In this document: positions 50,783 to 51,692 of the stretch, piece by piece
Position numbering within the stretch: the stretch's first letter is position 1
How the letters are laid out: every line of letters starts with the position of its first letter
DNA from: a bacterium
GTDB taxonomy: Bacteria > CLD3 > SB21
Reading direction: 5' to 3'
Assembly (NCBI GenBank): GCA_013360215.1
Contig: JABWCP010000023.1
Location: 1-51,692, forward strand
Length of the DNA stretch: 51,692 bases
Notes under the pieces: model-generated
The model's database searches: none
What the model saw: only the letters and a program-made list of their open reading frames with translations
What the model was told of the DNA's origin: nothing
Made by a program: the position numbers and the translations under genes

Positions 50783-51085
50783 TTATTGATCTTTACGAAA
50801 ACCGCCGCGATCACGGCCGCCGAAGGGCTTTTTTTCCATCGGTTTGGCTTCGTTGACGATCAGAGGACGTTCCATAAAGGAATAGTTATGGAACATTTCT
50901 TTGGCTTTTTCAGCTTCTTCAGCCGTTGCCATTTCGACAAAACCAAAGCCTTTGGACTTCCCCGACAACTTGTCTACAATGATTTTGGCTGAGGTGACCG
51001 AACCAGCTTGCGAAAAGAGCTGGGTAAGACCATCGTCATCAGCGCGGTAGGACAGGTTGCCCACGTACAGTTTGTTTGAGTTCAT
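50783..51085 (-). CDS. Single-RRM RNA-binding protein with Gly/Arg-rich tail
   Basis: RNP2 LYVGNL, RNP1 KGFGFVEM, VNEAKP, GGRDRGGF tail. ATG at 51085 follows AAGGAGA. Confidence 0.95.
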   Translation of the reverse strand: MNSNKLYVGNLSYRADDDGLTQLFSQAGSVTSAKIIVDKLSGKSKGFGFVEMATAEEAEKAKEMFHNYSFMERPLIVNEAKPMEKKPFGGRDRGGFRKDQ

Positions 51086-51126
51086 GCGAACATCTCCTTC
51101 AGAAAAAAAAATCATGGGTTAAATAC

Positions 51127-51160
51127 AAAAAACCTCAAAGCGCCCATTCACTTTGAGGTT
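51127..51160 (-). promoter_or_regulatory. Terminator-like hairpin in the 5' leader of the RRM gene
   Basis: Minus strand AACCTCAAAGTG-AATGGG-CGCTTTGAGGTT then TTTT, about 40 nt before the start codon. Confidence 0.55.
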
Positions 51161-51305
51161 GTAAAACTTTATACACACGAAATGGCTTTAAGACGGGAAT
51201 AAGTCACAAAGACAAGACCGGAAAAAGAATACTTGCTCAATCGAGCATCGAAACTTTTAAAACAATTAACAAATAACAAAAAGCATTCACACTGCTTACA
51301 ATTCA

Positions 51306-51423: not shown

Positions 51424-51452
51424 TTGACATTCGAGAGGGAATCAGCTATATT
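51424..51452 (+). promoter_or_regulatory. sigma70-type promoter upstream of the tRNA-like repeat array
   Basis: TTGACA (51424-51429), 17-bp spacer, TATATT (51447-51452), with an A-tract upstream; 35 nt before the first unit. Confidence 0.75.
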
Positions 51453-51487: not shown

Positions 51488-51692
51488 GCGAGTGCAATTT
51501 AGTGGTAGAATGTTCGTCACGCAAAATGCGTGACTGGACGTCGCGAGTAAGATTACAAAGATAACTGATACCTAGTCTGAGAAGTAATAAGACAGTATTT
51601 AATGCGAGAGTAATTCAGTGGTAGAATGCCGTCACGCAAAATGCGTGACTGGACGTCGCGAGTAAGATTACAAAGATAACTGATACCTAGTC
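51488..51692 (+). repeat. Tandem direct repeat (~116-bp period, at least 2 units, cut by window end) of tRNA-Gly-derived 5' fragments
   Basis: Units start at 51488 and 51604. 51515-51577 is identical to 51630-51692 (63 bp). Each has an acceptor 5' strand, D-arm, variable loop and T-stem 5' strand, but no anticodon loop or 3' half. Confidence 0.88.

Follow-up and report, generated by a model that had tools for sequence, protein, structure and literature searches.

Few stretches of a cell's DNA are as conserved or as heavily transcribed as its tRNA genes, which are also classic integrase targets. At the end of the DNA analyzed here, two tRNA-like units carry a palindrome in the place of a decoding arm, which raises the question of what these units are and how the palindrome came to stand in them. 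The window, 51,692 nucleotides long, is the whole of contig C39 of genome G000, whose 3.72-Mb assembly comprises 56 contigs with 44.8% G+C; its relatives are labeled G002 to G008. A pattern search found the 19-base palindrome GTCACGCAAAATGCGTGAC at exactly two window sites (Table 1, hairpin plugs 1 and 2), with a chance expectation of 0 and no occurrence in 100 dinucleotide-preserving shuffles. The palindrome consists of a perfect 8-bp stem with an AAA loop, and folding of the surrounding single-stranded DNA gave -9.4 kcal/mol (z, -3.7).

Table 1. Features of the Gly locus at the window end, plugged tRNA copies elsewhere in G000, and cassettes with small GIY-YIG ORFs in related genomes
Feature	Coordinates	Strand	Description
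Promoter-like site TTGACA-17-TATATT	51424..51452	+	11/12 consensus matches; 35 bases upstream of unit 1
Unit 1, 5' part	51488..51515	+	tRNA-Gly(CCC) positions 1-27 in diverged form, comprising the 5' acceptor strand, the D arm and the start of the anticodon stem
Hairpin plug 1	51516..51534	.	Stands in for inner anticodon stem and loop
Unit 1, 3' part	51535..51545	+	tRNA positions 40-50, from the 3' base of the anticodon stem through the variable loop to the third base of the T stem
Spacer 1	51546..51603	+	58 bases, A+T-rich; a 59-base copy precedes the intact gene
Unit 2, 5' part	51604..51630	+	tRNA-Gly(CCC) positions 1-27, exact (27/27)
Hairpin plug 2	51631..51649	.	Identical to plug 1
Unit 2, 3' part	51650..51660	+	Copy of tRNA positions 40-50
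Spacer 2	51661..51692	+	Interrupted by the contig end; continues on C48
G000 Val(TAC) copy			D-arm interior swapped between G10 and C25
G000 Arg(CCT) copy			T-arm interior swapped, hairpin on outermost pair
G000 Val(CAC) copy			T-arm interior swapped on outermost pair; TCCCGC-type hairpin
G000 Ala(CGC) copy			D loop and anticodon arm both swapped
G000 Lys(CTT) copy			Hairpin replaces 5' strand of T stem (positions 49-53); copy behind the gene's terminator
G007 Ser(GGA) cassette			ORF runs into T-arm remnant, followed by double hairpin, tRNA 3' part and second terminator copy
G003 Ser(GGA) cassette			ORF, then full-length tRNA copy with a plug in each of its three loops
G004 Ala(CGC) cassette			ORF begins 3 bases past the tRNA
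G006 Ser(GCT) cassette			Contains GIY-YIG ORF
G002 Gln(TTG) cassettes	G002:C13:1-1500		Two ORFs; readable start codons 2 bases past tRNA/copy 3' end
G004 Ser(CGA) cassettes	G004:C299:1-1400		Two ORFs; readable start codons 2 bases past tRNA/copy 3' end

The units were aligned with the native tRNA-Gly(CCC). Unit 2 equaled the tRNA exactly at linear positions 1 to 27 (51604-51630) and 39 to 50 (the last C of the palindrome, 51649, together with 51650-51660), and about 11 to 12 bases of the anticodon arm were exchanged for a hairpin of 18 to 19 bases. The tRNA likeness of the units ends after the GCG of the T stem, which in unit 1 is at 51545. The sequence-only reading had held that the palindrome replaces the anticodon stem-loop in both units by a precise swap rather than by random decay, that the adjoining CC and TGG are the base of the original stem, and that no NCC anticodon remains. 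The alignment bore this out: the swap is clean at both sites, no NCC is left, and CC and TGG are the anticodon-stem base because unit 2 matches the tRNA exactly on both sides. The same reading had described the palindrome as constant while its flanks drift, which holds for the 5' parts, where unit 1 differed from unit 2 and from the tRNA by four substitutions and one indel in 27 to 28 bases. However, everything 3' of this point is identical too (62 of 62 bases from the palindrome onward), so the repeated block spans plug to plug, and a recent duplication, by unequal crossing-over between the 5' tRNA pieces, would explain the identical palindromes without any need for selection. The spacer copies agreed over 58 of 59 aligned positions, with one indel, and the 3' part of spacer 1 was similar to the spacer of G003. 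In addition, GCGAG at the unit junction repeats the first five bases of the tRNA, and the junction may therefore have arisen through microhomology.

The units were then considered as possible tRNAs. ARAGORN found no tRNA genes in the window, and an Rfam search of the units returned no family and no intron family, with RF00005 giving no unit match even at E values up to 10. Both units stop within the T stem, and their 5' strand GCGAGAG finds no complement downstream; an 8-bp hairpin with a 3-base loop occupies the position of the anticodon loop, and the T loop is absent. Without the T loop and the 3' acceptor strand, the units are unable to form an acceptor stem, and the idea of a selected nondecoding mimic that glycyl-tRNA synthetase or anticodon nucleases would treat differently, also raised in the sequence-only reading, is not supported for this reason. 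An intrinsic terminator was rejected because the stem is followed by TGGACG instead of a T run and the terminator scan lists none at these places, and a tRNA intron was rejected because the host copy is truncated and Rfam gives no intron family. As far as their sequence can be read, the units are dead, 3'-truncated copies of tRNA-Gly(CCC) that stand between the likely promoter of that gene and the intact gene. Unit 2 also closes on itself, through pairing of the GCGA at its 5' end with a TCGC in the piece that covers the variable loop and T stem; the two-arm fold of 51604-51660 with this 4-bp closing helix gave -13.7 kcal/mol (z, -4.0) with DNA parameters.

The intact tRNA-Gly(CCC) gene lies outside the window, at C48:124-196, after a 59-base spacer. 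The last 96 bases of the window are exactly the first 96 of C48, and because of this overlap, an apparent third copy of the palindrome at C48:35-53 is probably physically the same as plug 2. The smallest arrangement that fits is the promoter-like site, unit 1, unit 2, and tRNA-Gly(CCC). Contig depth over the unit was about two to three times that of the flank in two samples, which hints at two to four units and is not readable as a copy number. The locus was also present in contigs from runs of two other studies, and in one contig from another sample, the spacer led through GAATGCC into AGCTTCCC, the true anticodon arm, with the spacer joined directly to the tRNA. Because contigs of other studies contain both the locus and the spacer-tRNA join, the locus is no assembly artifact. 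The promoter-like site is, from its motifs, the sole good candidate promoter for the units and tRNA-Gly(CCC), and the first 400 bases of C48, spanning the last unit and spacer as well as the tRNA, contained no site of this kind. RNA contigs from two metatranscriptome runs covered only 50900-51285 and are uninformative on the units either way. They covered a gene at 50783-51085 on the reverse strand, whose translation reads as an RRM-type RNA-binding protein, together with its leader; a terminator-like hairpin lies in this leader at 51131-51160.

The palindrome belongs to a hairpin family within G000. TCACGC-N2-9-GCGTGA hairpins occurred 17 times in 3.72 Mb, and 10 of these lay inside partial copies of tRNA genes, spread over four loci (Ala-CGC, Arg-CCT, Val-TAC, and Gly-CCC); a single physical copy was probably counted twice among the 10, across the overlap of C39 and C48. 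Members of this hairpin family take the place of an arm in partial copies next to five further tRNA genes of G000 (Table 1). A k-mer screen flagged 8 of the 46 tRNA genes; six were verified, including Gly(CCC), and two were chance matches in coding sequence. The TCACGCC stem was constant and its triloop variable, with six triloops (GTG, GTT or AAC, TTC, TTT, and ATA) in addition to the Gly variant. This stem was specific to G000, with 10 sites compared with zero to two in each of 14 family genomes, and none of the exact TCACGCC hairpins of relatives (five loci) was within about 1.5 kb of a tRNA called by ARAGORN. The plug thus behaves as a propagating DNA element whose stem is shared by several tRNA loci of G000 while its loops differ. 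These results support a REP-like hairpin family strongly tied to tRNA genes, in agreement with the suggestion from the sequence-only reading of a REP-like palindrome aimed at such genes. Rfam searches around two hairpin clusters away from tRNA genes found nothing.

Next, we turn to the relatives. Upstream of tRNA-Gly(CCC), G002 carried one unit with CCAGTCCCGA-TGTG-TCGGGACTGG, and G003 carried two units, in which the G002 stem surrounds a 27-base insert and a second hairpin stands in the D loop. Both genomes belong to genera other than that of G000. The tRNA likeness of their units ends at the same point as in G000 in the case of G003 and two bases further on in the case of G002. The stem shows a compensated change from C-G to A-T (GTCCCG/CGGGAC in the relatives and GTCACG/CGTGAC in G000), so that the covariation across homologues envisaged in the sequence-only reading was indeed found. 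The Gly locus was without units in all seven family genomes read by eye, the sister genus included, and 11 of the 13 matching family genomes had a single match. When the Gly-unit pattern was searched in one genome per species, only G002, G003, and one chance match in Halarchaeum coding sequence were found. In a tree of MurE, a single gene with five open forks, the three unit-bearing genomes (G000, G002, and G003) did not form a clade, and G000 paired with G004 with 98/98 support at 54% MurE identity. The shared end point of units in lineages that are not a clade would reflect either the long retention of an old unit, a hint at function, or else a process acting at a specific site.

Plugged copies extended well beyond the Gly locus in these genomes. 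In G003, 17 of the 40 tRNAs in the screen were positive, covering 40 of 48 Rfam matches, and in G002, 6 of 26 were positive, covering 26 of 41; all five inspected loci were plugged in each. The control genome, G008, gave 1 positive among 30 (30 of 48 Rfam matches covered). Among hairpins in tRNA flanks other than terminators, those rich in G+C and ended by T..A numbered 21 of 37 in G003, 7 of 18 in G002, 7 of 14 in G000, and 0 of 13 in G008. A two-hairpin plug of the T loop (TGCGCC-N3-GGCGCA with TCCGCC-N3-GGCGGA), set between GTTC and RAATC, was found in G003, G006, and G007, and a variant with two TGCGCC-type hairpins was found in G005. The copies ranged from 19 tRNA bases to full length, and some stood behind intrinsic terminators, namely, Lys(CTT) in G000, Pro(TGG) in G003, and Phe in G002. 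Plugged tRNA copies are therefore a lineage-wide feature and are not specific to one locus.

In five related genomes, plugged copies were part of cassettes with a small GIY-YIG ORF, which abutted the tRNA or its copy or lay within about 50 bases of it (Table 1); the plugged copy, with short perfect hairpins rich in G+C in its loops or arms, stood before or after the ORF. The three complete aligned ORFs were each 81 amino acids (aa) long. In an alignment of four cassette ORFs, identity to the first was 40 to 47%, and the 95-aa type of G000 was 39% identical to the first. In NCBIfam, the small nucleases matched no family; a single hit, to a group I intron endonuclease, fell below threshold. In the tandem cassettes, the start codons 2 bases past the tRNA ends suggest that the ORFs are transcribed from the tRNA promoter. 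At the Ala(CGC) locus of G004, the ORF is accompanied by an upstream plugged unit that matches the Ala units of G000 piece by piece, with the spacer end shared; its plugs are of the TCCCGC type, and the D-loop plug differs from that of G000. This likeness links the ORF-less units of G000 to a cassette and indicates that plugs turn over, and the presence of different plugs in the same Ala unit indicates that plugs are exchanged or homogenized within a genome. No GIY-YIG gene was found at the Gly locus of G000, G002, or G003, so the link between this locus and the cassettes runs only through analogy and the orthologous Ala locus. It also counts against a cassette origin that the assembled contigs of G000 contain four small GIY-YIG genes, each away from tRNA genes and none of the 81-aa type. 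The Gly locus of G000 has in common with the cassettes an intact tRNA beside a partial copy and a perfect, G+C-rich hairpin on the arm base. No small GIY-YIG ORF separates its plugged copy from the intact tRNA, and it is therefore classed as a remnant, not as a cassette member.

Several known kinds of palindromic or tRNA-derived DNA were compared with these units. REP elements and REPINs, which go with RAYT (Y1) transposases, are short palindromes outside genes that increase in copy number within their genome, with conserved stems and free loops; REP elements carry a GTAG head and occur in tens to hundreds of extragenic copies. In contrast, there are about 17 hairpins here, without a flanked RAYT gene or a GTAG head, and they lie inside partial tRNA copies, stacked on an arm base. 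Displaced tRNA fragments at the integration sites of islands are usually unaltered 3' fragments with kilobases of cargo and an integrase between. The Gly units resemble such scars in being partial tRNA copies next to an intact tRNA gene, but they are 5' fragments, 115 bp apart, with one arm replaced. Hairpin DNA is also found in the loops or helices of RNA genes in the form of rRNA intervening sequences, Rickettsia palindromic elements, mitochondrial GC clusters, and double-hairpin elements. In these cases, the host genes are functional, and the inserts extend a helix and are tolerated or removed from the RNA, whereas the plugs described here occur in disabled copies alone and, in relatives, are associated with a nuclease cassette.

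The closest known systems are SegB of phage T4 and the Ssn/NTS system. SegB is described as a free-standing GIY-YIG homing endonuclease in a tRNA gene cluster, whose recognition site includes the T-psi-C stem-loop motif of tRNA genes and which spreads with flanking tRNA DNA (PMC2330249). The cassettes of the relatives resemble it in placing a small GIY-YIG nuclease gene among tRNA genes. However, SegB comes from a phage, has a DNA-binding part, and is not reported to be accompanied by hairpin-plugged tRNA copies; the proteins found here are single-domain, chromosomal, and accompanied by disabled tRNA copies, and at the Gly locus the nuclease gene is gone. Ssn proteins (cd10448) are described as single-domain GIY-YIG proteins of about 100 aa flanked by scattered short G+C-rich hairpins (NTS/SRM), in a repeat-gene-repeat layout that was likened to a mobile element; the enzyme binds a hairpin in single-stranded DNA and cuts beside it (PMC11893778). 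The main text of the Ssn paper does not contain the word tRNA, and the Gly palindrome does not have the published SRM pattern. The literature searched, in which the Ssn paper was covered by its main text, described neither tRNA copies plugged by hairpins nor mini GIY-YIG cassettes linked to tRNA genes.

With moderate confidence, we interpret the Gly units as the ORF-less remains of a tRNA-linked GIY-YIG cassette of a type active in this bacterial family. By analogy with T4 SegB, which acts at the T-psi-C motif, the nuclease would cut tRNA-gene DNA at a loop, and repair would copy the cassette into the cut tRNA gene. One tRNA copy would stay intact, and the hairpin would render the second copy both uncuttable and useless. 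The nuclease gene would later have been lost at the Gly locus, and a 115-bp block, consisting of plug, tRNA piece, spacer, and 5' tRNA piece, would then have been duplicated by unequal crossing-over. A further proposal, which we regard as speculative and rather doubtful, is that the plugs form a separate class of mobile DNA, which finds its targets by their structure and not by their sequence. Such plugs would enter the single-stranded loops of tRNA-gene DNA folded as a cloverleaf, replace the interior of an arm while stacking on its outermost pair, and be moved or copied by single-strand GIY-YIG nucleases of the Ssn type; the plugged copies would be kept for homing homology and self-immunity.

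The abundance of partial tRNA copies is left unexplained if the hairpins are free-living, REP-like or Ssn-related mini-elements that settle in redundant tRNA copies, with a preference for cloverleaf loops, and are moved in trans by 95-aa GIY-YIG nucleases or a Y1 transposase, no cassette ever having been present at the locus. We consider this unlikely but a real alternative. It would suit the homogeneous stem across loci within G000 and two of the small GIY-YIG genes of that genome. These two are 95-aa genes on C19, 96% identical to each other and flanked by hairpins, one type of which matches the published SRM pattern (CACCCGCG-type hairpins) and another of which resembles NTS as described in PMC11893778. 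One TCACGCC hairpin (C19:9044) is nested in a hairpin cluster 2.6 kb from a 95-aa gene. However, neither the Gly palindrome nor the TCACGCC hairpins match the SRM pattern, which is itself nondiscriminating in G000, with 12 matches compared with 14 in a shuffled genome. A single gene for a Y1 (IS200-like) transposase (PF01797) is present in G000, and it has no inverted repeats within its 3.3-kb locus; PF01797 is absent from the cassette-bearing G007 and present in four of the five g9 genomes, which have a single Gly match. The sequence-only reading had pointed to small nuclease or HUH transposase genes as possible partners of the palindrome; the first half of this link was recovered in the small GIY-YIG genes of the relatives' cassettes, and the HUH (Y1) half is weak.

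A different explanation, which appears distinctly improbable to us, is that the units are a functional leader RNA cotranscribed with tRNA-Gly(CCC), serving as a processing or decay signal, as a protein-binding hairpin on a tRNA-like scaffold, or as a regulator of maturation. The position of the units between the only promoter-like site and the gene would fit this, as would the closed two-arm fold (z, -4.0), the same architecture in three genera with a compensated C-G to A-T stem change, and the orthologous Ala unit kept between G000 and G004 despite 54% MurE identity. Nevertheless, plugged copies also stand behind intrinsic terminators in three genomes, their extent varies from 19 tRNA bases to full length, and no Rfam family was found. 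Units were lacking at the Gly locus of the seven family genomes read by eye, with a single match in 11 of 13, and triloops on perfect stems suit DNA hairpins better than RNA motifs. Debris of an integrase island, in the form of displaced att tRNA fragments, or a tandem duplication followed by random decay was already disfavored and is very improbable. Partial tRNA copies beside tRNA genes are the classic integration scar, and at a distance of 1.5 kb from the intact tRNA-Val(TAC) gene there is indeed a 5'-defective copy, separated from it by two orphan ORFs. However, the Gly units are upstream 5' copies only 115 bp apart with neither integrase nor cargo, the arm was swapped cleanly instead of decaying in a scattered way, and one hairpin stem recurs at four tRNA loci.

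The evidence suggests a second and much smaller class of tRNA-gene parasite, in which a nuclease gene of about 81 aa is carried along by a tRNA gene and plugged copies are left behind. About 40% of the screened tRNA genes are touched in some genomes, as in G003, and the hairpin debris could affect tRNA gene annotation and local recombination. tRNA expression could also be affected, since leaders and trailers carry very stable hairpins, and so could assembly, since two arrays break contigs in G000. The cassettes would connect the Ssn single-strand nucleases and their hairpin repeats with a concrete genomic target, the tRNA genes. A structure-aimed class of plugs, if true, would represent a new mode of transposition or homing and a natural role for this nuclease family beyond Neisseria.

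Further observations were made on hairpins, small GIY-YIG genes, and tRNA copies elsewhere in G000. Two further hairpin types form arrays at the contig ends C4:98400-98730 and C49:1-330, namely, GTTCCCGC-N4-GCGGGAAC, which comes with 18-base tandem repeats, and CACCCGCG-N2-CGCGGGTG. These types also flank both 95-aa GIY-YIG genes on C19. The further small GIY-YIG genes, at C29:10298-10549 and C14:133617-133853, appear from the flanking translations to lie in type I restriction-modification loci, and the gene on C14 is followed by five tandem 45-bp repeats. A second tRNA-Val(TAC) at C45:34992-35051 (reverse strand) is intact from position 8 to its 3' end, but its 5' acceptor strand is foreign. 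The intact gene is 1.5 kb upstream of this copy, and the two orphan ORFs in the interval (156 and 106 aa) gave nothing over the cutoff in Pfam and only a sub-threshold match to Cas6b_C; with its defective copy and orphan ORFs, the stretch looks like a small island or a decayed insert. Behind tRNA-Arg(CCT), a 50-bp tandem array occupies the ends of C37 (14539-14627) and C47 (43040-43137). In each unit, a TCACGCC hairpin set on the outer pair of the T stem is joined by the 3' acceptor strand and a trailer. The array breaks the assembly, and the two contig ends share a 25-base overlap.
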